Source of the DNA: an uncultured delta proteobacterium
GTDB lineage: Bacteria > Myxococcota_A > Polyangia > Polyangiales > Polyangiaceae
Direction of reading: 5' to 3'
Length of the DNA: 64,000 nucleotides
NCBI GenBank assembly: GCA_963841435.1
Contig: CAWJCS010000003.1
Span: 896,001 to 960,000, forward strand
Shown here: one piece after another, positions 2,297-22,368 of the stretch
Layout: the number at the start of each line of letters is the position of its first letter
Numbering within the stretch: the first letter of the stretch is position 1
Translations under genes and position numbers: made by a program
Notes under the pieces: model-generated
Seen by the model: the letters and a program-made list of their open reading frames with translations, nothing else
What the model was told of the DNA's origin: nothing
Databases searched by the model: none

Positions 2297-2980
2297 CTAG
2301 CTCGAGAACGGGATGAACAGGCTCAGACCGCCCGTGGCCGTGATGTCGTTCACGATCTTGTCGACGCCGAGCTGCACGCGCTGCTGCGAGTGCACGATGT
2401 CGCGCGTGTCGAGCCGGAACGCGAGCCATTCGGTGAGGTAGAACTTGAAGCCGAAGCCGCCGGAGCCGCTCAGGCCGAGATCACCCGGCTCGACGGTCGC
2501 GCCGCCGCCGAGCGCGACGTAAAAATCGTAGCGACCGATGGCGCCGCCGAGCCAGCGGACCTTGCCGTAGGCGATCGACCAGACCAGATGCCCGAGGAAG
2601 AACTGGATGGGGTTCGAATCCGCCTGGACGATGTCGATGAGGCCCTGCTGCCGCTGCTCGATGGCCTCGAGCAGGGAGTACTTCTGACGGGCGCGGAGGT
2701 AGCTTGCCTCGAGGCCGAGATCCTCGGTGAAGTGGAAGGTGTAGGCGCCGCCGTAGGTGGGAGCGCCGTCGGAGATGTCGCCCGCGTACCAGCCGCCGAA
2801 CGCCGAGATCTCGTGGCGGAGGGCCTTCTTGATGAGGCGCGGCACGACGCCGCGGTACGCGCGCTGGCCGATGAGCTGCTGCTTGAGCGCTTCGTCGACG
2901 CACTGGGCGCGGGCCTTTGCGGGCACGAGCAGGGCGAAGGCGACGGCCAGCGCGCCGAGCCAGACACGGACCGGGGGCAT
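2297..2980 (-). CDS. Outer-membrane beta-barrel protein (myxobacterial GltA/B/H-like type)
   Basis: Signal peptide from ATG 2980; [44 protein letters not shown]-terminal GLSLFIP. Confidence 0.75.
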
Positions 2981-3203
2981 GTTCAGCGCGCCCTCGACGG
3001 GGGGCAGAACAACGCGGAAGCGGGTGCAGCGGCGCCGGCGCTCAACTCGCCATAGGGAACTATCACACCTGACACCGGCACGAAAAGCGCAGTTTTTCGC
3101 GCGGCCCCGCTGCCGTCTCGGGCACGCCTCGCTGCGCGGCCGACGGCGGCGGGGCGCGCCTCTCACGCCCCGCGCTGCGCGGTCGGCGCTAGGCTCTGGT
3201 TCC

Positions 3204-4541
3204 ATGCGGATACCGCTGTCTCTCGCGGCGCTCCTTCTGTTCGTGACGACGCGCGTCGCGGCCGAGCCGGCCCGGGGGGCGGACGCCTGCGCCGGCCCGC
3301 TCCGCTCGACGCTCACCACCGTCGGCTGCCGGCTCGCTGCCGGTCTCGGCGAGCGAGCGCAGGGCGCGCTCGTCATCGGCGTCACCCCCACGGCCGACCC
3401 ACCGGTCGCCGTGCGCGCCGAGCTCGCGAGCCGCCTCGCGCGGCTGGTCGCGGGGTCGATCGGGAGCGGCGCCACCGCCTGGCCCGCCGTGCTCGGCGCG
3501 GCGCGCGCCAGAGCGCTCTCCGACGGCCGGCGCCCGCTCGTGGTCGTCACGGCGCGCCTGGGCGACGCGCGCCTCGAGGTCACGGCCGACGCGTTCGTCG
3601 GCCGTGACACGCTGTGGCGCCGCCTGCGACGCGGGCGCTCGGGGCCCGTTTCGCACGCGTTCGCGGAGGGCCCACTCGACGCCGAGCTCAAGACGTTCTT
3701 GCCGCCCGTGCCGCTCGTCGCTCGCGAGATCATCAAGGGTCAGGGCGCCGACGCCGACCTCGTGGCGGTCGCCTGTGGCGACCTCGACGGCGACGGATCG
3801 CCCGAAATCGCAGCGCTCGGGCGTCGCCGAGTGTCCGTTTTGCGACTACGCGGGGGTCGCGTCGAAACGGCGGCGGCGAGGCCGCTCACGGCGCTCGCGC
3901 CCGTCGCCGGCACGCCGCTCCGCGAGCCGATCGCCGCGGCGTGGATCCCCGCGAAAGGAGCGCTCGACCTCGGCGTGACCGATCGAGCGGCCGCGCTGCG
4001 CCTGGACGCGAAGCTCCAGAGCGTGACGCCGCTCGCCGGGCGGCTGCCGTGGCCGGGAGGAGGCTGTGCGAACGTCGCCGAGCTCGGCGTGGCGCCGAAG
4101 CTCGAGCCGTGCCGTCCGGGAGAGGCGGCGCCGGGCGGCGAGGCCCCGGGCGCCGGAGCGGGCGATGCGCTCGCGGGCGCGCGCGTGACGCGGCGTGACG
4201 GCTCGGTCGCCGTCGTGCGTGCCGTACGGCTGCTCGGCACGAGCACGGCGAGCATCCGCGACGGCGCGCGCACGCTCACGGTCGAGCCCGTGGGAGCCGA
4301 GCTCGCCGTCGGGGACCTCGACGGCGACGGCTCGGCGGAGCTCGTCGCGAGCCTGGACACGCAAAAGCGCGAGGAGGACGCCATCGTCGTCTACGGCTTC
4401 TCCGCCGACGGTCAGGCGAGCGAGCGCTTCCGTCTACCCGTGCCGAGCGGCGTGCGCGCCGTCGGCGTGTGTCCGCTGCGCTCGAGCGCGATGGCGCCGA
4501 TCGTGGTTGCCACGGGAGATGGCCTTTGGCTCGTGCGCTGA
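3204..4541 (+). CDS. Secreted FG-GAP/VCBS-like repeat protein
   Basis: Signal peptide from ATG 3204; two GDLDGDGSxE motifs. Confidence 0.75.
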   Translation: MRIPLSLAALLLFVTTRVAAEPARGADACAGPLRSTLTTVGCRLAAGLGERAQGALVIGVTPTADPPVAVRAELASRLARLVAGSIGSGATAWPAVLGAARARALSDGRRPLVVVTARLGDARLEVTADAFVGRDTLWRRLRRGRSGPVSHAFAEGPLDAELKTFLPPVPLVAREIIKGQGADADLVAVACGDLDGDGSPEIAALGRRRVSVLRLRGGRVETAAARPLTALAPVAGTPLREPIAAAWIPAKGALDLGVTDRAAALRLDAKLQSVTPLAGRLPWPGGGCANVAELGVAPKLEPCRPGEAAPGGEAPGAGAGDALAGARVTRRDGSVAVVRAVRLLGTSTASIRDGARTLTVEPVGAELAVGDLDGDGSAELVASLDTQKREEDAIVVYGFSADGQASERFRLPVPSGVRAVGVCPLRSSAMAPIVVATGDGLWLVR

Positions 4542-5869
4542 GGCCGGGAGCGCCCGCGCGCGCAAGCCGCCGCGCCTTCGGAGCGCTCCTTCTGCTCGCG
4601 CCCGGCGCGAGCGCGCTCGGGCGGACGCCGCTCGGCGGCACGCTGCGACTGAGCGTGCCGTTTTCGACCCGCGAGCTCGATCCGCACGCGGGCGACAGCG
4701 CGATCGCGGCGTTGTTCGCGCCAGCCGTCGCCGATCCGCTGTTCGCGCTCGACGAGGAAGGGCGCCCCTACGCGGCGCTCGCCGAAGCGCTGCCCGAGCG
4801 CACCGCCGAGGGCGCGCGCCTCACGTTGCGCGCCGGGCTCGTGAGCGCACGCGGCAAGCGCCTCGACGCGCGCGACGTGGCCTTCTCGCTCGCCCGCGCC
4901 GCCCGCCTCGGCGGGGCCGCGACGCTCGGCGAGCTCCCGGCGCCGAGCCCCGATGCGCGCGACAGGCTCGCGCTCGTGTTTCCCGGCGCAGACCCGACGG
5001 CGGTCGCCGTCGCGCTCGCGAGCCCTCTCACCGCGCTCGTCCCGCGCGGCTTCTCCGCGGCTCGCCCCGACGGCACGGGCGCATTCCGGGCCACCGTGAC
5101 GGCGTCGGGACTGACGCTCGAGCGCAACGTCGTCGCGGCGCGCGGCCCGGCGTTCCTCGAACGCGTCGAGGTGACGCGCGCCGCCGGTCTCGCCGACGCG
5201 CTGCGCGCCTTCGAGTCGGCGCGGGCCGACGTGGGTTGGCTCGGAGCGGGCCTTCACCAGCCGCGGCGCGGCTCGGTGGCACTCGCCGGGCCGGACTACG
5301 GGCTGCTCGTGCTCCGCACCGGACGCGAGGCGCGCGCCTGGGCCGCGCCGGGCATCGCGCAGGGGCTCCTCGACCGCGTGCCGCCGGGCGCCCTCGCGCA
5401 CCTCGGCGTGCGAGACGTGGGCGGCACGCGACGCGCGGGCGCGCTGTGGGACGGCGGTGCCGCCGAGCTCGTCGTGGCATCCGACGAACCGATGCTCGGC
5501 GAGATTGCCGAGGCGCTCGCGGGCCTGCTCGCACCGCGCGCGGGGACGCTCGCCGCGCGCGGCGTCCCGCCGAGCGAGCTTGCCGCACGGCGAGCCACGG
5601 GCGCCTTCGCGCTCATGCTCGACTTCGTGCGCCTCGCCGGTCCGCCGGGGCGCGCAACCTTGCTCGCGCTGCTCGCCGCGACGAGCCCCGAACTCGCGCG
5701 CCGCCCGCCGCGCCCACCGTCTTACGAGCCACGCGACGTGGCACGCACTCTCCCGCTCGGCGTCGTGGGCGCCCTGCACGTCACGGGCGCGCGGGTGCCC
5801 GAGCTCGGCGGGCTCGAGCACTGGCAGCTCGGCAACGCCTATCTCACGCCGAATAGCGCACCGCCCTGA
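4538..5869 (+). CDS. ABC-transporter substrate-binding protein, family 5-like (start uncertain)
   Basis: GGTLRLSVP..LDP, DPLFALDEEGRPYAALA, LDARDVAFSL, DGTGAF; Tat-like SRRAF near the N-terminus. Confidence 0.7.
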   Translation: MRPGAPARASRRAFGALLLLAPGASALGRTPLGGTLRLSVPFSTRELDPHAGDSAIAALFAPAVADPLFALDEEGRPYAALAEALPERTAEGARLTLRAGLVSARGKRLDARDVAFSLARAARLGGAATLGELPAPSPDARDRLALVFPGADPTAVAVALASPLTALVPRGFSAARPDGTGAFRATVTASGLTLERNVVAARGPAFLERVEVTRAAGLADALRAFESARADVGWLGAGLHQPRRGSVALAGPDYGLLVLRTGREARAWAAPGIAQGLLDRVPPGALAHLGVRDVGGTRRAGALWDGGAAELVVASDEPMLGEIAEALAGLLAPRAGTLAARGVPPSELAARRATGAFALMLDFVRLAGPPGRATLLALLAATSPELARRPPRPPSYEPRDVARTLPLGVVGALHVTGARVPELGGLEHWQLGNAYLTPNSAPP

Positions 5870-5933
5870 CGTTGGCGGCGACGCGTCACGCGGCGCCGGG
5901 ACGACCGCGCTACGACCGCGGCACCGTTCGCCG

Positions 5934-6797
5934 TCAGCGGGCGGCGTCGAGCACGGCGCGGCCCGCCGCTTCGAAGTGGGCCTGTAAGACGGCGCCGGGG
6001 ACGGCCGCGTCGCGCCGCGCCGAGATGCTGCGGGCGGCGTCGAAGGCGGCGCCTTCGAGGCCGAGCGCCGTGTAGAGCGCGCCCTCGAGCTCGGCGAAGA
6101 GCGCTTCCTCGTCGGGGCCGAGCGGGCCGCACTCGGGGGCCGCCCGGCCGCGGTCGCGCGCGAGGCGGCGCCGCGCGGCCATCTTCAGCCGCATCTTGAG
6201 GACCGACAGCAGGTACACCGACGAGCCGTTCATGTCGGACGCGAGCCGGTCGCGGTCGGCGCGCCAGGCCGCGTCGAGGTCGAGCTCGGCCGCGCGCCAG
6301 GCGGGCGCCCCGGCGAGGCCCGCGAGCGCGGAGAAGTAGCCCACCTGCTCGGTGTGGTGCTCCTCGCTCGCGAACTTGTCGAGGTGACACAGGTCGTGGA
6401 TCAAGAATTCGAAGCCGTCACGCGGACCGTGCTCGACCGAGACGGGGAGCAGGCTCGCGCAGCGCGCACCGCGCGCCTGCAGCGCGAGCACGTGCGCCGC
6501 GGCGGGCACGTCGCGGCGAAGCTCGACGGAAAAGCCGCCCGACCAGCGAAACAGCGCCCGCACGGCGCGCTCGGGCACGCGGCAGAGCCGCCGTGTCGCG
6601 AGCAGCGAGAGCGCGGGCGACGGTGGCCCGCCGAGCGGCTCGCGCCGCGCGCCCTGATCAGCGCGGCGGCCGAGCGCCTGCGCGGCGCGCTCGACGAGGT
6701 ACGCGGCGGCGTGCTCGGCGTCGTTTTCGGGCGTGGAACGGCTCGGCCCGCCGGCGTCGACGCTGTCGAGCAGCGGTCGCCCCAAAAAACCAACCAT
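5934..6797 (-). CDS. Hypothetical protein with HDLCH motif
   Basis: 287-aa ORF filling the gap; FLIHDLCHLDKF, HHTEQVGYF, SDMNG. Confidence 0.6.
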   Translation of the reverse strand: MVGFLGRPLLDSVDAGGPSRSTPENDAEHAAAYLVERAAQALGRRADQGARREPLGGPPSPALSLLATRRLCRVPERAVRALFRWSGGFSVELRRDVPAAAHVLALQARGARCASLLPVSVEHGPRDGFEFLIHDLCHLDKFASEEHHTEQVGYFSALAGLAGAPAWRAAELDLDAAWRADRDRLASDMNGSSVYLLSVLKMRLKMAARRRLARDRGRAAPECGPLGPDEEALFAELEGALYTALGLEGAAFDAARSISARRDAAVPGAVLQAHFEAAGRAVLDAAR

Positions 6798-6827
6798 CGC
6801 CTCGCGTCCCGGGCTGCACCGCGCGCG

Positions 6828-7589
6828 CTACGGTACCTTGGTCGGCTCCGGCAGCTGGGCGCCGCCGCGCACGGCCTTGACGATGCTTTCGCTGAGCTTG
6901 TCGTCGGCCTTCACGCATTTCAGGCTCACGTCGCCGCTCGTCGCGCCCTTGCACTCCTTGCGACGCGCCTGGTACGCCTCGTTGATGGTGCTGTCGGTGC
7001 GCAGTGCTTCCTGCACGTTGTCGTCGAGGAAGCGCCAGTCGATGTGGGCCGCCTTGGGCTGCGGCGGCTTGTCGAGCGTCATCTCCTCGGCCGAGAGCGT
7101 CACGCAGCTGCCGTCCCAGCGCAGCGCGTCGTAGCTTGCACCCGCGCCGCTCACCTGCATGCCGCCGAGATCGGCCTTTCGCTCCATCAGCACGAGGACT
7201 TCCTCGTCGAACTCGAGCCAGCCGTTGTCCGACGCGCCACCCGAAGCGTTCCAGGCCCTGGTTTTTCCGCGCAGGTAGCCGCGCGCCCACGGCGAGCCGT
7301 TGGCGAACAGGTAGAGCGCCACGCCGGGAAAGCTCGCGGCGCAGAGCCTTTCGACGAATTTTCGCGGCGGGACGCAGGTGCCACCCTTCTTGCTGCACTC
7401 CTTGGGGACGCCCGCCGTCTCGCTCGCGCGGGTCGCTTCGCCCTCGCCGGCGCTCGACCCGTCACCCTCGTCGCTCGCGGGGCCCTCGGCGGCGTCGCTC
7501 GATGCCGAGGGCGCGGCCGGCGGGGGTGCGCCGCCACCGCAGGCGAGCAGAAAGAGCGCGACGGGGATCGGAAGCTCGAAGGCACGCAT
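6828..7589 (-). CDS. Cys-rich lipoprotein
   Basis: Lipobox LLAC-GGG, low-complexity linker, paired cysteines. Confidence 0.75.
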   Translation of the reverse strand: MRAFELPIPVALFLLACGGGAPPPAAPSASSDAAEGPASDEGDGSSAGEGEATRASETAGVPKECSKKGGTCVPPRKFVERLCAASFPGVALYLFANGSPWARGYLRGKTRAWNASGGASDNGWLEFDEEVLVLMERKADLGGMQVSGAGASYDALRWDGSCVTLSAEEMTLDKPPQPKAAHIDWRFLDDNVQEALRTDSTINEAYQARRKECKGATSGDVSLKCVKADDKLSESIVKAVRGGAQLPEPTKVP

Positions 7590-7594
7590 GGTCG

Positions 7595-8326
7595 TCATTT
7601 CCCCTTGACGTTCGGCGGCACGGCGACGGTCGCCTTCGCTTTCCAGTGGTCGACACTCGCCTTGACGCGGGCAAGCTGCCTGACGGCGCGGCGATTGGCC
7701 GGACCCGTCCCGAGGCCCCAGAGCCCCACGTCGAGCTCGACGCTCTCGCCGTTGCCGAGCGGCTTCATGCCGTGCTTGCCAGGCCATTCGCGTGAAAGCT
7801 TGACGGTGGTTCCGGCGCCGAGCGGCTGGTCGCCATCGCCCTCGCGCTCGTCCCCGAAGGACTCGGCGTCGCTCTTGCCCCCGCGCTTGACCGCACCGGC
7901 GAACGCGAGCGGTCCGTTCTTCGGAGCGAGCAGCGAGCGGTCCTCGCTCGCCGTGGCCGAGACGACGACGCGCACGCCGAAGCCCGCGGGCGTCCGCACC
8001 GTCTCGGCTTTGATCATGAAGCGCACGTCGTCGACCTCGGCCTTGAGCCCCTCGGGCATGAGCACGTAACGAACGGTGCGCTGGGCGTTCGGGTCGCGCG
8101 CCGGCGGTGCGGGCTCGTCCGGCTGATCGTCGGCGGGCACCGTGTCGTCGGTCCGAGCGGGATCGGAGCCGACGCTCTCCGCGGGCTCCAAAGGGGGCGG
8201 CTCGGGCGCGACGCTCGCGGGCGCTTCGGGGGCCGCGGCCGCTGGGGTTTCGGCGGCGCCGCCGCCGCAGGCGACGAGCGCCATCGCGAGGGGAGCGAGA
8301 AGGACGAGCGGAGCAATGACCCGCAT
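7595..8326 (-). CDS. Lipoprotein
   Basis: Lipobox LVAC-GGG, Pro-rich linker, beta-rich domain. Confidence 0.75.
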   Translation of the reverse strand: MRVIAPLVLLAPLAMALVACGGGAAETPAAAAPEAPASVAPEPPPLEPAESVGSDPARTDDTVPADDQPDEPAPPARDPNAQRTVRYVLMPEGLKAEVDDVRFMIKAETVRTPAGFGVRVVVSATASEDRSLLAPKNGPLAFAGAVKRGGKSDAESFGDEREGDGDQPLGAGTTVKLSREWPGKHGMKPLGNGESVELDVGLWGLGTGPANRRAVRQLARVKASVDHWKAKATVAVPPNVKGK

Positions 8327-8487
8327 CGCTCCCTCTTACCCTGGAAAATGCACGGCTTGAAAGGCCCTTGCCTCGACCGCCCGAGCCGGCGGGGCCCTCG
8401 GGCGCGCGAGCACGCGAACGACGCGTCGCGCCACGGCCGAAAAGTACCATCGCCACGTCACACACGCGAGGCTACGCTTCGCGCCAA

Positions 8488-9834
8488 ATGACCGGCGGAG
8501 AGCGCGAATCCGGGACCCCGCCGAGCGGAGCCGCACCCCACGGTGCACCGCGCTTCCAGAAGATCCGCCGCATGAACCGGGGGGGCATCGGTTGCATCGA
8601 CGTAGCCAGGGACCCGGTGATCGGGCGCCGCGTCGCCATCAAGGTGTTGCGCTCGGAGCTCGAGGGCAACGATGCCGCCGCGCTCAAGTTCGCCGAGGAG
8701 GCGCAGATCACGGGTCAGCTCGAGCACCCGAACATCGTGCCCATCTACGATCTCGGGTACGACGAGCGCGGTCCGTACATCGTGATGAAGCTCATCCGCG
8801 GGCTCAGCCTCGCGGAAGCGATTGCCGACGTGCGCGGCCGCGAGCGCCCCGAGCGGCTGCAGGAGCTCGTCGAGGTCGTGCTCAAGCTGTGCGATGCGCT
8901 CGCGTTCGCCCACAGCCGCGGCGTGATTCACTGCGACGTTAAGCCCGAGAACGTGATGGTGGGGGATTTCGGCCAGGTTTACCTGATGGATTGGGGGGTG
9001 GCGCTCGTCGCCTCGGGACGCGAGGGCTCCCCGAGCCAACGCGGCACGCTGCCGCCCCCCGCTTCGCCGCAAAAGGAGCCCTGCGATGCCGCCGAGCACG
9101 ACTCGTTCGTGCACATCGACATGTCCGCCGTCTCGAGCAGCAAGGTGTGGGGCACGCCGGCCTACATGGCGCCCGAGCAAGTGTCGGCCAGGAGCGAAGC
9201 CATCGACGAGCGCACCGACGTCTTCGGCATCGGCGGCATCCTGCACGAGATCCTCACGGGCCGACCGCCCAACGACTGGCAGAAGCTGATCGGGCCGGGG
9301 CTCAACCACCCGCTCGAATCGTTGCCCGACAAGAGCGACCTCTGGCCGCGCCTGCCACCGGAGCTCTGCCGCATCGCACTTAGGGCGCTCTCGCCGAAGA
9401 GCGAGGACCGCTACCCCACGATCCCCGCGCTCAAGGCCGATCTCGAGCAGTTCTTGCGCGGCGGGGGCTGGTTCGAGACCCAGACCTTCCCGCCCGGTGC
9501 CCTCGTGATTTCCGAAGGAGCGCCCGGCGACGCCGCGTACATCATCGAGAGCGGGCACGCCGACGTGTTCAAGCACATGAACGGCGAGCGCACCTTCGTG
9601 CGCCGTCTCGGCCCGGGGGAGGTCTTCGGTGAAACGGCCGTGCTCACGGGCGGCGCGCGCACCGCGACCGTCGTCGCAGTTGACGCGCTGAGGCTCAAGG
9701 TGATCACGGGTGAGTCGCTGAACCGGGAGCTCGATCTGAACCCATGGCTCGCGGCGTTCGTGCGCTCGCTCGCGAGGCTATTTAGCGAGACGGACCAGCG
9801 TCTGTCACGACCGGAGGGGCTCGGTCGCACGTAG
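8488..9834 (+). CDS. Hanks-type Ser/Thr protein kinase with C-terminal cyclic-nucleotide-binding domain
   Basis: RGGIG, VAIK, LEHPNIVPIYD, HCDVKPEN, DWG, GTPAYMAPE; C-terminal EGAPGDAAYIIESG and FGETAVLTGGARTATV. Confidence 0.92.
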   Translation: MTGGERESGTPPSGAAPHGAPRFQKIRRMNRGGIGCIDVARDPVIGRRVAIKVLRSELEGNDAAALKFAEEAQITGQLEHPNIVPIYDLGYDERGPYIVMKLIRGLSLAEAIADVRGRERPERLQELVEVVLKLCDALAFAHSRGVIHCDVKPENVMVGDFGQVYLMDWGVALVASGREGSPSQRGTLPPPASPQKEPCDAAEHDSFVHIDMSAVSSSKVWGTPAYMAPEQVSARSEAIDERTDVFGIGGILHEILTGRPPNDWQKLIGPGLNHPLESLPDKSDLWPRLPPELCRIALRALSPKSEDRYPTIPALKADLEQFLRGGGWFETQTFPPGALVISEGAPGDAAYIIESGHADVFKHMNGERTFVRRLGPGEVFGETAVLTGGARTATVVAVDALRLKVITGESLNRELDLNPWLAAFVRSLARLFSETDQRLSRPEGLGRT

Positions 9835-9885
9835 GGGGCGGAGGTCGGTAGCGAGAGAAAAAACCAGCAGCGAGAGGGAGACGCC

Positions 9886-12800
9886 ATGACGGTCACGACA
9901 AGCAGCAAGAGCCTTCGTACGTTGACGGAGCTGACGCTCCTCGCGGACATCAAGCCGGGCTTCGTGCCCGTGCCCGACCTCATGTCTTACGCGACGCGCC
10001 TCGGCGCGCTGCTCAAGGCCCTGTTCGGGCTCAGGCGGCAGAGCATCGAGGCGGAGCCGTCCGGCTACGTGGGACCGCTCGAGCGCTTGCAATCGCTGCA
10101 CTTCGTGCGCTGGTCGATCCTCGAGGGGAAGAAGCTCTTGCTCGGCGTGAGCTTCGACCGCGCCTGGGAGCCTTACATTCGCGGCATCGTTGACGAAGCG
10201 GGGCCGTTTCTCGACGTGATCTTTTGCCATACCAAGGACTACGACGGGCACGCGACGAGCGACGGCTACGCGAAGTTCTCCCAGTGGGTGCGCGCGCATC
10301 AGGTTGACGTGCCGTTCTTCTACGCCGGCAATCCCGGCCTCACCGTCGACGACGAACGCTTTCTCGCCGAGTACGAGCGGCGCGTGCGCGCCGGCGACGA
10401 CGCGACGGACCTGGTGCTCCCCGAGCCCGGCGCCGAGGCACCGAAGCAAGAAGCCCCGGACATCGCCCAACGTCGCCTCCGGCGCGCGACGCGGGCGCTC
10501 GCGCTGATTCGCGAGTTTTTCCCGCCCGGGCGAGACCAGGACTTCTTCGACCACGCGGTGTTTTCGCTGCTCGAGGGCCTGGTCCCGCGCTCGGCCGGCG
10601 AGAGCATCGACGACGCGCTGAAGGCGCTCGCCGCCGCCGCGCCCGACATAGCCCAGCCGCTCGCAGCGATGCGCCAAAAAGTTCCCGGAGCGGCGCTGCT
10701 CGAGGACGACGAGGAGGCCGACGATCTGTCCGACGATCTCCAGGGTAACGTGCGCACGGGCTACCGTGGCATGACCCATGGCTGCCTCGCGCTCTTGCGC
10801 TGCGACGGCCGAAAGGCGGCGCGGAAGCTGCTCGCTCGCCTCGTCGCTCACGTGACGACCGACGCGTGCGCGAACGAAGCCAAGGAGGCCGTCAACGTGG
10901 CGCTGACGCGGGACGGCCTGCGCACGCTCGGCGTGAGCGAGGCCGAGCTCGCCGTCTTCCCCGCCGAGTTTCTCGAAGGCATGGAGGCGCGCGCCGGGCT
11001 GCTCGGCGACGTTGAGGCCGAGCATCCGTCGCGCTGGCAGCTGCCGAGGTTCGACGGCGATCCGGTGCCCCTGTCGAGCGTCGACGCAGTGCTCTCCGTG
11101 CAGGCGTCGCCCGCGAAGGTCGGGCCGAACGACCACGTGTTCGGCGCCGAGCATCCACTCGCGCCGCGGCTCGCCGCGCTGCTCGAGGGCCTCGAGGGGG
11201 TGAGCGTGCTGCACGTCGAGCCGCTCCTCAGGCGGCCACAACCTCCAACCGAGCCCTTCGTGCGCGAGCACTTCGGCTTCGTCGACGGCATCAGCCAACC
11301 GGTTCCCCGGGCGCGGCGCGCGGACGCACCGCCGTCCCGCGACGAGGTCGCGCTCGGCGAGGTCGTGCTCGGGTATCAGGACGATCACGGAGAGCGCCCT
11401 CCGGGAAGCGACGGCGGGCTGCTCAGGCACGGCAGCTTTCTCGTCGTGCGCAAGCTCGTGCAGGACGTGAGGGCGTTCCACGCGTTCGTGGCCACGTCCG
11501 GCATCCCCGCCGAGCGGCTCTACGGCGCGCTCATGGGACGCAAGCGCGACGGCGCGCCCCTCGTGGGACGCGGGGCGAAGGGAGACAACGATTTCGACTA
11601 CTCGGAAGCCGAGGCGAACCAGAAGTGCCCGGTCGCTTCGCACGTGCGCCGCACGAACCCGCGCACGCCCGATCGCCTGTCCGTGCACGGCCGGCCCATG
11701 CGCACGCCGCGCATCGTGCGGCGCGGCTTCTCGTTCGGCCCGATCGACCCCGAGATCGAAGCCCCCCGCGGCCTCGTGTTCATGGCCTACAACGCGAGCA
11801 TCGCGAATCAGTTCGAGGTGCTGCAGCGCTGGATCAACGGCGGCAACAGCACGGGCGACCTCAGCAGCCACTCCGACCCCGTCGTGAGCCACGCGCACCC
11901 GCGCGTCGTCACCGTGCCCCACGACGGCAAGCACGTTCGGCTCCAGAAAACGAAGCCGTTCGTCACGCTCGCGTGGGGCATGTACCTCTTTTCGCCATCG
12001 CGGAGCGCGCTCAGCGAGCTCGCCGCGCGCGACGAGACGCGCGACCGAGAGCTCGCGCGGGTCGACGAAGACGAGCTGGCCGCGCGGGGACACGAGATCA
12101 TCACCAAGCTCGAGCTCGCTCACGCCGTGCTCGGCGAAACCGCTGCGCGGGCAGAGTGGAAGCTCGTGCTCGAGGATCGCGGCGCGCGCGAGCAGGGGCG
12201 GGCCGTGTGGGCGGCGATCCGCCGGCGGGGCGGCGCGCTCCGCACTCCGTACGGCGTGCTCGTGGGGAGCGCCGACGCGGTGCTCGACGTGCTCGCCGAC
12301 GACGGGCGCTGCTCGGTGCGCGGCTACTACGAACGCATGGAGGCCTCCGTCGGGCCGCTCTACCTCGGTATGGACCGCTGCCCGGTCGCGCACGAGGGTG
12401 CGGGCTCGCAAGCCGACCAGCATTACGAGCGCGTGGTCCAGCCGGGAACCTACGACGCGTCGGCCGAGGCTCCCAATCGCTTCATGCGCGGCCTCACGCG
12501 CGAAGACGCCTTCTCGGCCACCCGGCAGGCGGCGCTGCTCACGCTCGCGGGGCTCGCGACGCTGAGCCCGCTCGTTGACCTTCGCTACTACGCCGCGGGA
12601 ACGGCGCGCCGCGTGTCGGAGGCTTGGTTCGGCCTGCCCAACGCGGATGAGCAGTTTCGGGAGATCTTCTCGGTCGCGGCGCAGAGCATTTTCGATCCCC
12701 ACCCGGAGCCCGTGGTGCTCGCCGAAGCGGAGAAGGCTCGCGAGAAGCTCCGCACCGCGGAGGAGAAGCTGCTCGAGACGAACCCGCCCATGCTCGCCGC

Positions 12801-13359
12801 CCTGCCCGGTTTCGACGACGAAGAGAAGAAGCGGGCGCTCGTCGGGGGCGCGCAGGGTTTCCTCGTGGCGACCGTCGCAAGCTTCGTGGGCGTCGCCGCC
12901 GACTGGCTCGAGAGCGGACGCGCCGCGCGGCTCTCGCAATGGCTGCGCACCGCGGCCCCCCGCGGGCTCACCGATCCGCACCAGAAGCCGTCGGCTGCCG
13001 ACCTCGAGGACTGCGTCTGGCTCGTGCGCGAGCTTTACGACGCGCTTCGGCGCCACCCGCAGCCGGACATCCTGTACAGAAAGGCCGTCGTCCCGAAGAG
13101 CGTGGCGGACGGTGCCGTGTTCGTCGCGCCGGGCGACACGCTGGTCGTCAGCCTGGCCTCGGCTGCGGCGGAGCGCCCGGAATCGATCGACATCCTGTTC
13201 GGCGGGGCCGATCCACGCCGCGCGGACGACCCGCATCCGCTCCACTACTGCCCAGGCAAGGAAGCGGCCATCGGCGTCATGCTCGCGCTCGCCGTGACGC
13301 TGCTCCAAGAGCACGAGCTCAGGCTCGAGGTGCCGCTGTCGATCTCGTTCAAGGCGTGA
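9886..13359 (+). CDS. Fusion of N-terminal DyP-associated domain, DyP-type peroxidase and cytochrome P450-like domain (1157 aa)
   Basis: DyP motifs EHFGFVDGISQP, GSFLVVRKLVQDV, CPVASHVRRTNPR, RIVRRG, GLVF..QFEVLQRW; P450-like DALRRHP and FGG..HYCPG; RBS-like GAGGGAG upstream. Confidence 0.85.
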   Translation: MTVTTSSKSLRTLTELTLLADIKPGFVPVPDLMSYATRLGALLKALFGLRRQSIEAEPSGYVGPLERLQSLHFVRWSILEGKKLLLGVSFDRAWEPYIRGIVDEAGPFLDVIFCHTKDYDGHATSDGYAKFSQWVRAHQVDVPFFYAGNPGLTVDDERFLAEYERRVRAGDDATDLVLPEPGAEAPKQEAPDIAQRRLRRATRALALIREFFPPGRDQDFFDHAVFSLLEGLVPRSAGESIDDALKALAAAAPDIAQPLAAMRQKVPGAALLEDDEEADDLSDDLQGNVRTGYRGMTHGCLALLRCDGRKAARKLLARLVAHVTTDACANEAKEAVNVALTRDGLRTLGVSEAELAVFPAEFLEGMEARAGLLGDVEAEHPSRWQLPRFDGDPVPLSSVDAVLSVQASPAKVGPNDHVFGAEHPLAPRLAALLEGLEGVSVLHVEPLLRRPQPPTEPFVREHFGFVDGISQPVPRARRADAPPSRDEVALGEVVLGYQDDHGERPPGSDGGLLRHGSFLVVRKLVQDVRAFHAFVATSGIPAERLYGALMGRKRDGAPLVGRGAKGDNDFDYSEAEANQKCPVASHVRRTNPRTPDRLSVHGRPMRTPRIVRRGFSFGPIDPEIEAPRGLVFMAYNASIANQFEVLQRWINGGNSTGDLSSHSDPVVSHAHPRVVTVPHDGKHVRLQKTKPFVTLAWGMYLFSPSRSALSELAARDETRDRELARVDEDELAARGHEIITKLELAHAVLGETAARAEWKLVLEDRGAREQGRAVWAAIRRRGGALRTPYGVLVGSADAVLDVLADDGRCSVRGYYERMEASVGPLYLGMDRCPVAHEGAGSQADQHYERVVQPGTYDASAEAPNRFMRGLTREDAFSATRQAALLTLAGLATLSPLVDLRYYAAGTARRVSEAWFGLPNADEQFREIFSVAAQSIFDPHPEPVVLAEAEKAREKLRTAEEKLLETNPPMLAALPGFDDEEKKRALVGGAQGFLVATVASFVGVAADWLESGRAARLSQWLRTAAPRGLTDPHQKPSAADLEDCVWLVRELYDALRRHPQPDILYRKAVVPKSVADGAVFVAPGDTLVVSLASAAAERPESIDILFGGADPRRADDPHPLHYCPGKEAAIGVMLALAVTLLQEHELRLEVPLSISFKA

Positions 13360-16300
13360 GGCAACGCTTGGCGCGCGCGGCGAACGCGTGCATCCCGAGC
13401 TCGCGGAACGCCTCGGGCAGCGTGCCCGCGAGGTCGCGCGCCTCCTTGGCGTCCTTTTCGCCGTGGAGCAGCTCGGCCCGCGTGAGCTGCGTCAGCAGGA
13501 GCTCTCGCCGCGACTCGTGGGAGGCCGCGACCTCTTCGGCCCGATTCGAGCTCCGATTTCGCGCGCTCGATGTCCCTTTCTCGCGCGGCAAGCCGCGCAC
13601 GCACACGGTACGCCGGCACCTCGCCCAGGCGGTCGCCCGCCTCGGCACGCTCGAGCGCCCGGCCCGCGGCCCGCGCAGCCCCCTCGTCGTCGCCCGCGGC
13701 GAAAAGCGCCTCGGCGAGGCAAGCGCACCAGAACGACAGAAACAGGCGCATCCCGCGCTCGTCGAGCCAGGACACCACGCGGCCGAGCTCACCGAGCGCC
13801 GCCGGATCGGCACCGAGCATCGCTCGCGCGAACGAGCCGAGCGCCTCGCTCGTCGCGAACACGTAGGGCCCGCTCATCCGCTCGGCGCGCAGACGGCTCA
13901 CGCTCGCGGTCTGCACGCAGTCGCCGTAACGCCCCTGCCAGACCTCTATCATACCACGGAGCCCCATCAGCGAGGCCTCGACGGCGTGCTCGGCGCCCCG
14001 CACGGCCCTGAGCGCGGTCTCCATCGTGGCAGCGCTCTCTTGAAAATCTCCCTGGTAGCCCTGCACGAGCGCCTCGACGCCGAGGGCGTACGCGAAACCC
14101 ACGGGCACGGCGCGCAAGAAGTGAGTCTTCACCTGCGTGCGCTTGAGCTCGAGGGCGCGCTCGAGCATGGCGAGAGCTTGCGTGCACTCCGCGGATGCCG
14201 CGTGCACGTGTCCTAGATTGGCGAGGAGTTGCGCCACGAGCTTGAAGCTGCCCGTGTGCTCGGCGATGGCGAGCGCGGCACGCGCGTGGGACGAGGCGGA
14301 CTTGGCATCCCCGAGCGCGTAGTGGATCCAGCTCAGCCAGTAGTGGCTGCGCGCGATCGCCTCGGGATCGTCCAGCTTGACGGCGAACTCGAGCGCCCGC
14401 TCGAGCAGCCCCACCTGCTCGGGCGCGGGGCTGAACACGCACGCCGCCGCCCATTTCCAGGCAATCTCGAGCCAGCGTCGGCGCGTGGGCGCCGACGTTG
14501 AAATGCGGTCGAGCTCGAGCATGGCGGCGCCGTATTGCTGGCGCGCGCAGTCGAGCGACGACGCCGCTGCCGCCTTGTCGCCCGCGAGCTCCGCGTACAT
14601 GCTGGCGCGCTCGGGCTCGGCGGCGCCCGCCCAATGCGCGGCGAGCGCCTCGCTCCGTTCGAGCGCGCCGCTCTCGCCGAAACAGTCTTCGATGGCGCGT
14701 GCGATGGCACCGTGCAAGCGGCGGCGCTCACCGAGCTTCACGGAATTGTACACCACCTCACGCGTGATGCCGTGCTTGAAGCGGTAGAGTCCCGAGCTAT
14801 AGCCGGCGTAAACGAGGTCGTTCTCGGCGAGCGAATCGAGCGCCTGGGCCAGACCGTCGGGGCCGACGATGCGCGAGAGCAGCCATTCCTCGAACTCGCT
14901 GCCGATCACGGCGGCCGCCTGCGAGACCAGTGAAAGCGCCGGGGGCAAGCGCTGAACGCGAGCCTGGATGAGACCGTGAATCGTGCTCGGCACGCTCTTT
15001 TCGCGACCGAGGTCGAGCTCCACGCCGTCGCGCGACAGCGCCTGGCAGAGCTCTTCCAAGAAGAGGGCATTGCCGCCCGCGCGCTCCTTCATGGCGCCCG
15101 TGGTCTCGAGATCGAGCGCCGTGGGCATGAGCGCCCGCATCATGGCGTCCACCTCGTCCGTGTCGAACGGCATCAGCTCGATGAAGCCGCTCTCGCCGGA
15201 GACCGGCGCCATCACCTTCCCGGTACGCGCGCACGTCACCACGAGCACGCGCCGGGCCTCGCGCGACAGGCCCGCCACGAGATCGGCGAGCAGCTGCCGT
15301 GAGGCGTCGTCCGCCCACTGCCAGTCGTCGAGCGTCAGAACGACGGGGCCGCGCTCGGAGAGGGCGGTGATCCATTGCACGAACGCGTTCGAGAGCGACC
15401 CGTCCTCGGACTCTTGCTTCACGGGCGCGCCGAGCGACAGCGCCTGCAACAACGCTGGCAGTTGACGCAAGAGGCGGCGATCGAGGGCAGCGAGCTCTGC
15501 TTCCACGCGGCGCGCCGACGCTTCGCGAGGCGTATCGGCCTTGAGCCCGAACGCCTGGCGGAGGATCTGCAAGAACGGTTGCAGCGGCGCGATGTTGCCG
15601 TAGCTCTCGCAGTGCCCGGCGAACGTCCGGAGCTCGGGTTGCTCGAGCCGGCGCCGAAACTCCTCGAGCAGCCGCGTTTTGCCGACGCCCGCGTCGCCGC
15701 GCACCTCGAGCACCCGGACCTTGCCCGACAGCACGGCCGCGAGCGCACCGTCGAGCGCAGCGATCTCGCGCGAGCGGCCGATGAACGTCGTGAGCCCACG
15801 CCGGGCGCGCGCCTCGAAGCGCGTCGCGACGCCCGTGCGCCCGAGCACGCGATACACGGGCACGGGCTTGCCCTTGCCCTTCAAGCGCAAAGGCTCGACG
15901 GCCCGCGTCTCGAAGAACGGCTCCACGCCGCCGAGCGCGCTCTCGCTCGCGAGGATCTCGTCGTTCCCCGCCGCCGCGCAGAGACGCGCCGCCGTGTTGA
16001 CCGGGTCGCCGACGAGCTCGTAGCGGCCCTCCGCGGGGTCGGCTTCGCGCGCGTACACGAGGCCCGCGTGGATGCCCGTGTGCAATCGCGCGATGAAGCC
16101 CGGCGGCAGATCGACGTTCGAGCTTTAGCTCGCGGATGGCGGCGTGCAGCTCGAGCGCGGCCTCCGCGGCCCTTCGCACGTCGTCCTCGCCAGGGGTCGG
16201 CAGGCCGAAGACGGCGAGGAGGCCGTCGCCGTAGAATTGATTGAGCGTGCCGCCGTGCTTCTCGATGATGCCCTTGGCGAGCGCTTTCGTGCGATGAAGC

Positions 16301-16434
16301 AGCAACGCCACGAGCTCGGGATCGCTCTCCTCGTTGAGCGCCGTGTAGTCGCAGAGATCCGAAAAAAGCAGGCCGACGTGGCACCGCCGCTCGACCGAGA
16401 CGGGCCCGTCCGACCTTTTGCCACCTCGTGTCAT
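13349..16434 (-). CDS. Class III nucleotidyl cyclase-AAA/STAND NTPase-TPR protein; +1 frameshifts at about 16117 and 13545
   Basis: LLFSDLCDYT, QFYGDG, GIHAG, GDPVNTAARL; Walker A GDAGVGKT, Walker B LTLDDWQWAD, GGNALFLEEL, YRFKH; helical repeat C-terminus. Confidence 0.88.
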
Positions 16435-16600: not shown

Positions 16601-17779
16601 TCAGGAGCGGCGAGCCGCCTCGTGCTCGATGCGGGCGGCCTCGAGCAGCCCTGGAGATTCGAGCAGGTCCGCAGCCGTCCTGGCCATGGCCTTGGCGGCG
16701 ACCAGCATCGTTTCGTAGCCGCGCGCGCTGTCGGCACACGCGGCGAAGGCGCGCTCGTGGCAAAGCGCGTGACCCTCGTCGCAAATCGCGAGCCAAGGGT
16801 GAATCGCGGGGACGGCGAGGCTCACGTCGCCCATGTCGGTGGACGCCGAGCCCACGCTGGGATCCGTTTCACGCGGCTTACGCCCCAGCACCTCGAGGGC
16901 CGCACCGAAGCGCCGCGCCATGGCCATGTTGTTGAGCATGCCGCTGTAACCGACCTCGCGCTGGACGCGCACCTCGACATCGGAGGCGAGCGCTGCCGCG
17001 CGCGCGCAGCGCTCGACGAGATCGGCGACGGGACCCACCCCTTCGGTGGTGGGCGCGCGAACCGTGAACTCGCACGCCGCGTCCTCCACGATGATGTTCG
17101 GCGCCTGGCCCCCGTTCGTGACGATGCCGTAGATCCTCACGCCGTCTCGCAGATGAACGCGCTGAGAATCCACGAGCCGGAAGGTGTCGAGGCAGGCCGT
17201 GAGAGCGCTCTTGCCGTCCCAGGGTGCGAAGGCGGCGTGCGCGGGGACGCCATGGAACGCGACCTGCACGCGCAGCGTCGCGAGAGCCGGGTGCGCGAGC
17301 ACGTCGCGGTCGAACGGGTGAAACATCATGGCCGCATCGACGCCCTCGAACACGCCCGCTTCGATGAGCCGGATCTTACCGCCGCCGCCCTCCTCGGCGG
17401 GCGTGCCCACGAGCTCGATCGCGCCGGGCAGGGAGGCCCCGTGGCGCGCGAGCGCGAGGAACGCCCCCACGGCCGCGCCGGCGATGAGATTGTGCCCGCA
17501 GGCGTGCCCGATCTCCGGCAGCGCGTCGTACTCGGCGAGGACGGCCACGCGCGGCCCCTCGGCGGCGCCCGCCCGCGCGCGAAAGGCGGTGGCGAGCCCG
17601 CCGAGACCGCGCTCGACGACGACGCCGGCCACGCCCTCCACCATCTCGGAAATCCAGGAGCTCGCCTGCCGCTCCTCGAACGAGAGCTCGGGGTGATGGT
17701 GGATCTGGCGCGAAAGCTCGGTCAGCCGTTCCCCGAGCTCGTCAACGGCGCGATCGATGGCAGCGCGATCGAGCGGCAT
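16601..17779 (-). CDS. M20 family amidohydrolase
   Basis: HPELSFEE, AEYDALPEIGHACGHN, GTPAEEGGGGK, STDMGDVS. Confidence 0.92.
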   Translation of the reverse strand: MPLDRAAIDRAVDELGERLTELSRQIHHHPELSFEERQASSWISEMVEGVAGVVVERGLGGLATAFRARAGAAEGPRVAVLAEYDALPEIGHACGHNLIAGAAVGAFLALARHGASLPGAIELVGTPAEEGGGGKIRLIEAGVFEGVDAAMMFHPFDRDVLAHPALATLRVQVAFHGVPAHAAFAPWDGKSALTACLDTFRLVDSQRVHLRDGVRIYGIVTNGGQAPNIIVEDAACEFTVRAPTTEGVGPVADLVERCARAAALASDVEVRVQREVGYSGMLNNMAMARRFGAALEVLGRKPRETDPSVGSASTDMGDVSLAVPAIHPWLAICDEGHALCHERAFAACADSARGYETMLVAAKAMARTAADLLESPGLLEAARIEHEAARRS

Positions 17780-17808
17780 GAGCCTACAATAGGGCGCTCC
17801 CCTTCCCC

Positions 17809-18972
17809 GTGCCACCCCGCCGTCGTCTTCTCGTGAGCCACGGGCTCGTGCTGCTCGTTTCGGGCGTAACCGCCGCCTGTGCGAATCCACGCGCGCCGTC
17901 CAGCACCCAGCCGGCCGCGCTCCCCACGAAGAGCTCGACCGTCGCCGTCGAAAGAGCGCCCGCCAAAGCGAAACCAGAGCCGTCGAAGCTCGCGCCGCCC
18001 GCGCCCGTGAAGATCGAGCTCAGGGAAGTCGCGATGGGGACGAGCGTGACGTTCGTGGCGTTCACCAACGAGCGTGCCGACGAGGCCGCCGTGCGCGCCG
18101 CGATGGCGAGCGCGCTCACGCGCATGCGCGGGCTCGAAGCCGTCCTCAGCGAGTGGCGCGACGACAGCGAGATCGGCCAGTTGAACCTGCACGCGGGCGA
18201 GTGGGTTCCGATGGGCCCCGAGTCGCTCGAGGTCATCCAGAAGGGCCTGTGGGCGGGGCGGCTGTCGGGCGGCGTGTTCGACATCACGTTCCAGGCGATG
18301 AAGGACGTGTGGAAGTTCGGCACCGCGAGCGAGGCCGAGCCCCACGTTCCGACGCACAAGGAGATCGAGGCGCGCCGCCGGCTCGTGGACTATCGCAAGG
18401 TCGAGATCGACGAGGGCGCGCACGCCGTTCGCATCGGCAAGCAGCAGCAAGTCGGCCTCGGCGGCATCGCCAAGGGGTACATCGTCGACAAGGCGGCGCG
18501 CGTGCTGCGCGATGCGGGCGTCGACGCGTTTCTCGTCCAGGCCGGCGGCGATCTGTACGGCGCGGGCCGCAAGCCCGACGGCTCTCCCTGGGTGAGCGGC
18601 ATCCAGGATCCGCGCGGCGCGCCCGGGCAATTCTTTGCCACGATCGAGCTCACCGATCACGCCTTTTCGACCGCCGGCGACTACGCACGCGCCTACGTCG
18701 TCAAGGGCAAGCGCTATCACCACATCATCGATCCGCGTACGGGCTATCCGGCAACGGCGTGCCGCAGCGTGACGGTCTGGGCCCCCGACGCCTTCATCGC
18801 CGACGCGGTCGACGACATCGTCTTCATCCTCGGCCCCGAAAAGGGCATCCCGCTCGTCGAGTCACTCGACGGCGTCGGAGCGGTCATCGTCGACGAAAAG
18901 AATCACGTCACGGTGACGCGCAGGCTCGAGGGCAAGGTGCACGTCGTGTCAGCGCCGACCGACGGCATCTGA
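17809..18972 (+). CDS. apbE: FAD:protein FMN transferase (lipoprotein)
   Basis: AMGT, GGVFDIT, GGIAKGYIVD, AGGD, STAGDY, YHHIIDPRTGYP. Confidence 0.93.
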   Translation: MPPRRRLLVSHGLVLLVSGVTAACANPRAPSSTQPAALPTKSSTVAVERAPAKAKPEPSKLAPPAPVKIELREVAMGTSVTFVAFTNERADEAAVRAAMASALTRMRGLEAVLSEWRDDSEIGQLNLHAGEWVPMGPESLEVIQKGLWAGRLSGGVFDITFQAMKDVWKFGTASEAEPHVPTHKEIEARRRLVDYRKVEIDEGAHAVRIGKQQQVGLGGIAKGYIVDKAARVLRDAGVDAFLVQAGGDLYGAGRKPDGSPWVSGIQDPRGAPGQFFATIELTDHAFSTAGDYARAYVVKGKRYHHIIDPRTGYPATACRSVTVWAPDAFIADAVDDIVFILGPEKGIPLVESLDGVGAVIVDEKNHVTVTRRLEGKVHVVSAPTDGI

Positions 18973-22283: not shown

Positions 22284-22368
22284 CGGGCCCCCCGTAGCAC
22301 GGGATGGCGGCCCGGGCAGCGCTCGATCGCCCCGGGGCCGCGGACCGCGTGGAATTTCAGCCGTGGGC

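Follow-up and report, generated by a model that had tools for sequence, protein, structure and literature searches.

The stretch of DNA analysed here, hereafter the window, comprises 64,000 nucleotides of contig CAWJCS010000003.1 (positions 896,001 to 960,000, assembly GCA_963841435.1) from an uncultured member of the Polyangiaceae. It carries a gene, which we term the heme gene, whose product P0001 unites an N-terminal domain, a DyP-type peroxidase and a P450-fold domain in one polypeptide. Analysis of the family to which this protein belongs confirms a single-chain natural fusion of a complete DyP and an atypical P450-fold domain with a conserved cysteine. The architecture is near certain, the chemistry is open; two hemes are predicted per chain and the residues that would ligate them are intact. 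As to the function, we see the chances as evenly balanced that this is a reductase-independent, peroxide-driven and lipid-oxidising two-heme enzyme that is tied to cyclic nucleotide monophosphate (cNMP) signalling. Below we lay out the evidence for the architecture, describe the genes that accompany it and weigh the explanations that compete for its role.

The open reading frame (ORF) of the heme gene is free of internal stops (Table 1). Its GC content by codon position, 0.89 at the third and 0.48 at the second position in a window of 70.6% GC, marks the plus-strand frame as coding and the gene as real; by the same measure a long antisense ORF that covers the whole gene was rejected as a shadow frame of GC-rich DNA. 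In an alignment of 38 sequences the starts of the homologues fall within a few residues of the start of the ORF, and three conserved parts can be distinguished: the N-terminal domain with a helical linker, the DyP and the C-terminal P450-fold domain. A first-pass annotation of the window, made from the letters alone, had described this uninterrupted frame of 1157 codons in three parts and had proposed a survey of how widely the fusion occurs. Both points have been answered in its favour: there is no stop, and the architecture is family-wide, recurring in more than 100 protein clusters, which puts it far beyond chance, and in at least 40 genome loci. Within a set of 5.8 billion proteins 105 of 120 matches, the query included, span at least 94% of the query; these 105 measure 1140–1630 residues and share 27–59% identity with it. 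Where such relatives are named at all, their current annotation reads 'Dyp-type peroxidase family', 'EfeB' or 'hypothetical'.

The 40 loci were drawn from species-representative genomes, the window genome not among them, by a single peptide pattern taken from a 5-sequence alignment, and their number is a lower bound because only that one pattern was used in the scan. Most hosts are Burkholderiales (Variovorax, Xenophilus, Rhizobacter, Ramlibacter, Pseudaquabacterium and others); further hosts include Bradyrhizobium, Pseudomonadales, Polyangiaceae, Vicinamibacterales and others, and the closest named relatives of the window protein belong to Polyangiaceae or Polyangiales; together with a nearby gene that matches the OMP_myx_plus model, they make Myxococcota the probable origin of the window. 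At two loci the family gene lies in two ORFs, which reflects a frameshift or an assembly error (L027, 7545-8876 and 9248-12250; L031, 7524-9308 and 9305-12223). A metagenome-assembled genome of the Actinomycetes has an ORF without the N-terminal domain that is not followed by the cyclase partner discussed below (L017, 8906-11386).

The identity of the central domain is clear from several directions. Residues 282-712 align with PDB chain 8re3_A at an E-value of 5.9e-34 over chain residues 9–441 of 445, and all 22 PDB sequence matches of the region are DyPs or deferrochelatases. The profile search suggested in the first-pass annotation, run with hidden Markov models (HMMs), found Dyp_perox_C of Pfam in the heme protein at 31.7 bits, above the cut-off of 20, while TIGR01413 of NCBIfam reached 96.1 bits and so fell narrowly under its cut-off of 100.5. 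The three motifs that had been taken as signs of a complete DyP (GFVDG, SHVRRTNPR and RRG) are where they were said to be. They provide the distal aspartate D467, the predicted proximal ligand H586 and the predicted distal arginine R612, which are kept in 209, 215 and 215 of 215 aligned family DyP domains, respectively. This conservation makes the DyP part look catalytically complete, and by its sequence it looks like a complete, catalytically intact peroxidase of the C/D type. The best match across the whole domain is the DyP of Deinococcus radiodurans, with the same GxxDG aspartate, proximal histidine and distal arginine; 8RE2/8RE3 are structures of this enzyme (PMC10820274), and DrDyP is placed in class C (PMC13234801). 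The C/D-type enzymes DyP2 (4g2c), AnaPX (5c2i) and BadDyP (2d3q) are likewise among the closest known systems for this domain. Whereas known C/D-type DyPs are stand-alone proteins of ~440–490 residues, the DyP described here sits between two further domains.

The C-terminal domain (residues 713-1157) is confirmed, by family profiles and on its structural model, to have a P450 fold, yet it is far from any solved P450. No Pfam family matches it at E ≤ 10, PF00067 does not match the whole protein at E ≤ 1, and NCBIfam has no match to the separate N- and C-terminal parts. In a single-sequence search the sole PDB match is the P450 CYP97C1, at the K-helix and with an E-value of 0.34. Among 1.84 billion representative proteins searched, 518 representative-cluster relatives of the domain were recovered at E ≤ 1e-3, nearly all of them ~1150–1600 residues long and with the match at the same location. 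With a 20-sequence profile, P450s account for 57 of the best 60 PDB matches listed; with a 63-sequence profile there are 136 matches at E ≤ 1, and all 60 of those listed are P450s (best E-value 5.7e-5). In this second search the PDB P450s are colinear with the domain from the K-helix to the cysteine loop, and the HxCPG of the family falls on the HxCxG of the P450s. The AlphaFold2 model computed from the 63-sequence alignment has a mean predicted local distance difference test (pLDDT) score of 94.1 and a predicted template-modelling (pTM) score of 0.92. With Foldseek its matches at E ≤ 1e-3 number at least 500 PDB chains; every match listed is a P450, the alignments of those listed cover ~430–490 columns at a query TM-score (TMq) of 0.49–0.63, and the top rows hold CYP184A1, P450BioI, CYP97C1, CYP51 and BM3. 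The P450-like domain of the first-pass annotation is thus upheld by family profiles and by the fold, although the PF00067 search drew a blank, and the structure prediction that it had recommended does return a P450 fold.

Conservation within the family points to a putative heme-thiolate site. The codon that had been put forward for the cysteine ligand encodes C1122, which all 221 aligned family domains keep, as they do G1106, R1065, G991 and P940; F1105, H1120 and P1060 are kept in 220 of them. In the model the cysteine is residue 410 of the domain and the L-helix begins three residues later, at 413. R1065, on the strand that follows the K-helix, and H1120, two residues ahead of the cysteine, are presumably the usual heme-propionate partners, judging from P450cam geometry. 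A Cys-ligated heme site is therefore what is predicted for the third domain.

Other parts of the P450 signature are missing, much as the first-pass annotation had read them. DALR does stand in place of ExxR, and it aligns on the EAAR of P0120, a related protein described below; both ExxR positions (D1052 and R1055) vary across the family, of which the window protein retains DxxR, and on these alignments the loss of ExxR is a family-wide feature. In the predicted I-helix, residues 266–298 of the modelled domain, GFLVAT aligns on GGQHTS of CYP51. Where the acid would stand, the window protein has V994 and the family P, V or A; where the threonine would stand, the window protein has A995 and the Burkholderiales subgroup T. 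For the window protein, then, the absence of the acid–alcohol pair holds, and the P450-like domain lacks the residues for O2 activation. A resemblance of the I-helix to that of CYP152 was considered and dropped, no CYP152 being among the matches listed.

The loop that leads up to the cysteine required closer scrutiny. From F1105 to C1122 the spacing is 17 in the window protein against the canonical 7; among 221 members the distance from FGG to the cysteine is 11–33 with a mode of 14 and one outlier of 90, is never 7, and spans sequence that is hypervariable. The distance from R1065 to the cysteine, on the other hand, is 57 in the window protein, 56–57 as the family mode and 61 in P0120 (the last counted by hand), and HMMER alignments to PDB P450s show no large gaps, the stretch from the SA motif to the cysteine being 2 residues shorter than in 7qan and NasF5053. 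The PDB-profile alignment puts FGG near the PERF/meander region. The alignment with P0120 puts it on the canonical FG of FG...HxCxG (spacing 7) and shows an insertion after FGG together with a compensating 12-residue deletion before it. That FGG is the PERF/meander without any loop insertion was dropped as the sole reading after the P0120 alignment and in view of the hypervariable spacing. As aligned, the loop from anchor to cysteine is expanded, a hallmark of the family, and the region from K-helix to cysteine is without net lengthening, the segment that precedes FGG being short to a corresponding degree. The claim of about ten extra residues in the heme loop is right for the FGG-to-Cys spacing; a net insertion is not supported by the alignments, in which the K-helix-to-Cys distance is ordinary.

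This distinction bears on the CYP74-like features that the first-pass annotation had seen, for CYP74 enzymes are defined in part by a heme-binding loop with a net insertion of ~9 residues. Neither the 60 PDB-profile matches listed nor the Foldseek matches listed include a CYP74, and membership in CYP74 is not supported. With the allene oxide synthases and hydroperoxide lyases (AOS/HPL) of CYP74 the C-terminal domain has in common the lost acid/alcohol pair of the I-helix, the lack of a redox partner and a longer spacing from the aromatic–Gly anchor to the cysteine. Unlike them, it has a loop of hypervariable length (11–33) whose expansion is offset, as aligned, by a short meander, and it has lost ExxR.

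The relation to canonical P450s is most tangible in P0120, a protein of 1620 residues from a read-assembly source in which the order is reversed, the P450 coming first and the DyP last. Its P450 occupies residues 70–428, followed by motifs like those of the N-terminal domain (~500–560), a hydrophobic segment (~680–920) that is probably a membrane region, the N-terminal domain itself (989–1090) and the DyP (1118–1618). The HMM of the C-terminal domain family matches the P450 of P0120 at an E-value of 3.4e-19, and the N-terminal domain (E-value 1.6e-8) stands directly before a related DyP (E-value 1.3e-99). In contrast to the window protein, P0120 has a canonical P450 that matches PF00067, with EAAR as its ExxR and an FG-to-Cys spacing of 7, and it has the long hydrophobic region. 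P0120 is a second, independent arrangement in which this P450 clade is again joined to the unit of N-terminal domain and DyP.

The N-terminal domain is specific to this family. Across 38 sequences G25, R38, R50, E55, F90, D91, Y97 and R99 never vary, and the AlphaFold2 model (pLDDT 82) has the order beta-alpha-beta-beta-alpha(-beta)-alpha, followed by the helical linker. The domain has no match in Pfam, no PDB sequence match and no credible PDB profile match; Foldseek against the PDB gives none at E ≤ 1e-3, beyond which it hints weakly at ABM or ferredoxin-like proteins (9ltx, for instance, with probability 0.89 and E-value 0.26), and the Atlas matches, at 0.92–0.93, are unnamed clusters of 145–167 residues, with none among the named clusters. 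Searches for stand-alone versions returned 3 and 30 proteins which, by their short contigs and their lengths, seem to be fragments of the fusion or parts of it that were split off. The domain is found in 37 of the 40 loci, L026 and L039 being cut off at the 5' end and L017 seemingly lacking it. Since it also precedes the DyP in P0120, it appears, by sequence, to be an accessory that goes with this clade of DyPs. Pfam scans of the heme protein find no recognised cNMP-binding domain, and its N-terminus, a folded domain throughout the family, is not signal-peptide-like.

The first of the genes that accompany the fusion was overlooked in the first-pass annotation. Neighbouring genes in the 40 loci were called crudely as ORFs and then clustered, and in 34 of the loci a protein of ~1000–1100 residues with a class III nucleotide cyclase, an AAA_16 (STAND) NTPase and TPR repeats is encoded beside the heme gene. 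Five of the six loci without it end at or just past the heme gene (L019, L021, L026, L028 and L035); at the sixth, L017, downstream DNA is present and holds a carboxypeptidase in place of the cyclase. The partner stands tail-to-tail with the heme gene in 32 of 34 loci, and in 29 loci the two genes end -55 to +118 nt apart, in seven at exactly -4. Metal-binding and transition-state motifs of the cyclase are present. The domain order of cyclase, AAA_16 and TPR is that of Rv0386-type cyclase-ATPase-TPR proteins and of the TIGR03903 kinase/cyclase fusions; TIGR03903 itself matches at an E-value of 3.8e-65 but far below its cut-off, and the partner differs from both in having no kinase or LuxR domain, the kinase in the window being a separate upstream gene. 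This near-obligatory partnership, together with the cNMP receptors described below, moves the likely role in the direction of signalling.

In the window the partner is 44% identical to that of L008 over 845 residues, and a frameshift splits it between 16106 and 16171: residues 13–91 of the L008 homologue correspond to frame -2 (16407-16171) and residues 112–953 to frame -3 (16106-13584), while the cyclase profile falls in different frames with its positions 3–96 and 103–176. The second frame has a TAA stop at 16124-16126, beside a run of AAA. The 3' ends of the partner ORF and the heme ORF overlap by 115 nt (13245-13359), and because the partner ORF closes with ~110 residues that are rich in Arg and Ala and do not align with homologues, the true end of the gene may lie elsewhere.

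Lipases form the second recurrent association. Using HMMs custom-built from Pfam-positive examples, we find a patatin or SGNH lipase fused or adjacent to the heme gene in 27 of the 40 loci: an SGNH/GDSL-like domain as a C-terminal fusion or in the next gene in 17, a patatin-like gene of ~700 codons just upstream in nine, and another patatin gene in L032. An SGNH-like extension is found on 27 of 251 collected family proteins, and an N-terminal patatin domain on six of 12 long variants scanned. The suggestion in the first-pass annotation of an oxylipin-like signal gains independent support from this link in 27 of 40 loci and from the patatin fusions. Two loci carry a gene for a glutathione S-transferase (GST; L033, 12290-13132, and L037, 8676-9473) and one a gene for a FadL-type outer-membrane fatty-acid channel (L008, 12843-14099), each placed between heme gene and cyclase partner; the GST and FadL genes fit a lipid or lipid-peroxide theme.

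A third group of neighbours could receive a cyclic nucleotide. In the window the gene upstream of the heme gene encodes a Ser/Thr kinase fused to a domain that binds cyclic nucleotides; it lies on the same strand, with 51 nt from its end to the heme ORF, and the two may therefore be co-transcribed. Crp-type cNMP-binding regulators are adjacent in five loci (L004, L005, L008, L024 and L034). Redox partners are conspicuous by their absence: no reductase adjoins the heme gene among the window ORFs scanned, as the first-pass annotation had remarked, and among 96 neighbours in the 40 loci there is no conserved ferredoxin, ferredoxin reductase or other redox partner, only isolated flavin enzymes. 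Beside the cyclase partner a TIR-domain gene is found at L030 (15718-17241) and a phage-type integrase gene at L018 (14775-16562). The remaining genes recognised in the window are included in Table 1; several ORFs in 2757-8326 have no family match.

Table 1. Features of the heme gene and its surroundings, in positions of the 64,000-nt window
Feature	Positions	Strand	Detail	Basis
Outer-membrane beta-barrel protein	2297-3736	-	myxobacterial OMP_myx_plus type	model match
Ser/Thr protein kinase with cyclic-nucleotide-binding domain	8368..9834	+		Pkinase E 1.6e-32, cNMP_binding E 2.9e-19
Antisense ORF across the whole heme gene (rejected)	9805..13314	-	1169 aa	codon-position GC
Heme gene (P0001): N-terminal domain, DyP, P450-like domain	9886..13359	+	1157 aa, ATG start	
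N-terminal alpha+beta domain	9886..10395	+	aa 1-~170; motifs LHFVRW, SFDRAWEPY	38-sequence alignment, AlphaFold2
Helical, partly variable linker	10396..10728	+	aa ~171-281	alignment, AlphaFold2 model
DyP-type peroxidase domain	10729..12021	+	aa 282-712	PDB, Pfam, TIGR01413, family conservation
D467, distal Asp of the GxxDG motif	11284..11286	+	GFVDG, aa 464-468	PDB alignment, conservation
H586, predicted proximal heme ligand	11641..11643	+	SHVRRTNPR	aligned to SHIRRMNPR of 8re3
R612, predicted distal Arg	11719..11721	+	RRG	PDB alignment, conservation
Divergent P450-fold domain	12022..13356	+	aa 713-1157	AlphaFold2, Foldseek, PDB profiles, family HMM
Predicted I-helix	12817..12915	+	aa 978-1010, invariant G991	model helix, CYP51 I-helix alignment
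DALR at the K-helix ExxR position	13039..13050	+	aa 1052-1055	aligned on EAAR of P0120
Expanded Cys loop FGGADPRRADDPHPLHYCPG	13198..13257	+	F1105...C1122-P-G; C1122 = 13249-13251	family conservation
Partner gene, cyclase + AAA_16 + TPR	13245..16407	-	frameshift-split	homology to L008 partner
M20 peptidase	16601-17890	-		
ApbE flavin transferase	17809-18972	+		
Nucleotidyl transferase with mannose-phosphate isomerase/GMP-like beta-helix domain	21189-22496	-		

How might these parts work together? In the reading that we set at even balance, the heme protein would be a cytoplasmic enzyme of three domains: the family-specific N-terminal domain, a His-ligated DyP and a Cys-ligated P450-fold domain. 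Its substrate would be lipid-derived, either fatty acids freed by the lipase or their hydroperoxides, and its chemistry would be based on peroxide (H2O2 or a lipid hydroperoxide) and not on NAD(P)H-driven monooxygenation. The DyP would serve as peroxidase or radical generator and the P450-like domain as a peroxygenase or hydroperoxide-transforming enzyme, and the product or the activity would feed, or be controlled by, cyclic-nucleotide signalling. The STAND cyclase would act as sensor and emitter, and the signal would be received by Crp-type regulators or, in the window, by the Ser/Thr kinase that binds cNMP. A ligand bound to the TPR arm of STAND proteins drives their oligomerisation, and class III cyclase domains are active solely as dimers; a ligand on the TPR arm of the partner may thus induce STAND oligomers in which the cyclase domains are brought together. 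A stricter version, which we think unlikely as it stands, is a widespread four-part cassette in which a lipase supplies the two-heme enzyme with a fatty acid, the latter makes an oxylipin-like messenger without any reductase, the TPR sensor of the STAND cyclase detects this oxidised-lipid product or the state of the enzyme, and a Crp-type regulator or a cNMP-dependent Ser/Thr kinase responds to the cNMP so made: a bacterial oxylipin-to-cNMP pathway.

Several observations weigh against a lipid-oxidising enzyme coupled to the cyclase. The Foldseek E-values for many P450 families fall within one order of magnitude, and the fatty-acid P450s that top the fold ranking are for this reason not discriminating. 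No DyP is known to oxygenate fatty acids. Thirteen of the 40 loci are without a lipase, SGNH hydrolases act on non-lipid esters too, and neither the window protein nor its closest relatives (1160–1216 aa; L001 and L008) show a lipase, fused or adjacent; the whole 64-kb window holds no homologue of the partner lipases. As convergent genes are not co-transcribed, conserved adjacency is all that speaks for the coupling to the cyclase, and the frameshift in the window partner may signify a decaying module, a real pseudogene or an assembly indel.

The nearest competitor, put forward in the first-pass annotation, is an oxylipin synthase in the strict sense of CYP74 or Ppo, in which the DyP would dioxygenate a fatty acid via a protein radical and the P450-like domain would rearrange the resulting hydroperoxide to diol, allene oxide or aldehyde-type products, with no need of another oxidant. 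The pairing of two heme domains on a single chain, known from fungal Ppo enzymes, a P450-like domain without acid/alcohol pair or redox partner, the expanded cysteine loop and the fused or adjacent lipases are what such an enzyme would be expected to show. We nonetheless hold it to be doubtful: the cysteine loop shows no net insertion in the alignments, CYP74 is missing from the best sequence and fold matches listed, the dioxygenase of Ppo belongs to the peroxidase-cyclooxygenase superfamily, of which Pfam finds no domain in the heme protein, whose sole peroxidase similarity in the Pfam, NCBIfam and PDB searches is to DyPs, and no DyP is known as a fatty-acid dioxygenase.

Alternatively, the hemes could sense H2O2, lipid peroxides, O2 or NO, so that the protein would mainly regulate the neighbouring STAND cyclase. 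The adjacency of that cyclase in 34 of 40 loci and the cNMP receivers close by are in keeping with such a redox or peroxide sensor, which could also tolerate lost catalysis and hence the loss of ExxR and a variable cysteine loop. The full DyP triad, kept at 209–215 of 215, argues for catalysis and against a pure sensor, and the lipase fusions fit a substrate-supplying pathway better; we judge the sensor improbable.

A module for anti-phage defence or abortive infection, in which the STAND protein would sense infection, the cyclase emit a cNMP, and the lipase, DyP and P450 damage the membrane by lipid peroxidation, strikes us as quite improbable. Its appeal lies in the STAND and TPR architecture of the partner, in the patatin effectors of cyclic-nucleotide defence systems, in a unit of two or three genes that recurs in varying genomic contexts, and in the TIR-domain and integrase genes of L030 and L018, which are the sole hints of defence or mobility in the 40 loci. 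The cyclase domains of the L001, L002 and L009 partners also give weak matches to the PycC models of Pycsar in PADLOC (E-values 7.5e-14 to 1e-2), but these reflect general similarity among class III cyclases. PADLOC finds 0 families for P0001 and the window partner, and the kinase domain of the window matches the models PD-T4-6 and mad6 as any Hanks-type kinase would. The flanks are mostly housekeeping or metabolic genes and not defence islands, and the heme protein is without a cNMP-binding domain recognised by Pfam.

Detoxification or degradation of aromatic, lignin-derived or xenobiotic compounds, with the esterases de-esterifying plant substrates, would suit soil bacteria, the SGNH hydrolases that include carbohydrate esterases and the classical substrates of DyPs, yet it is highly improbable given an N-terminus that is a folded domain and not like a signal peptide, patatin domains that are lipid acyl hydrolases, a conserved cyclase link unexpected for a catabolic enzyme, and no conserved catabolic operon around the heme gene. 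The substrates in question are dyes, phenolics and lignin models (PMC11561623, PMC8230527).

Among known systems the closest in layout are the fungal Ppo enzymes, or linoleate diol synthases, which show that peroxidase–P450 fusions exist in kind. They too have a His-ligated heme domain of peroxidase type followed by a Cys-ligated domain of P450 type in one chain, and the P450 part works without a reductase; by this likeness a lipid substrate is plausible for the heme protein. The differences are considerable: here the first heme domain is a DyP, a dimeric alpha+beta barrel, with no peroxidase-cyclooxygenase match in Pfam, the P450 part is unrecognised by PF00067, the host is bacterial, and there are an extra N-terminal domain and a cyclase-STAND partner. 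In the full-text literature searched, with subscription-only literature outside the search, neither a natural DyP–P450 fusion nor its cyclase partner is described; in a review-type article on DyPs from 2026, the terms P450, fusion, fused and multidomain have 0 occurrences (PMC13234801). What is new is a P450 clade welded to a DyP, in an unreported context of lipases and STAND cyclases.

Domain databases miss the P450-fold domain of this family although 518 representative clusters carry it. To our knowledge, DyP peroxidases are still without clear physiological roles, and reductase-independent P450s (CYP74, CYP8A, CYP5A and the P450s of Ppo) are known almost solely from eukaryotes. The family offers testable candidates for a physiological class of DyP substrates, for a new P450 clan and for a lipid-oxidation input to bacterial cNMP signalling. 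If the four-part cassette were true, it would give the DyP fold its first role in lipid oxygenation and would add a new P450 clan.

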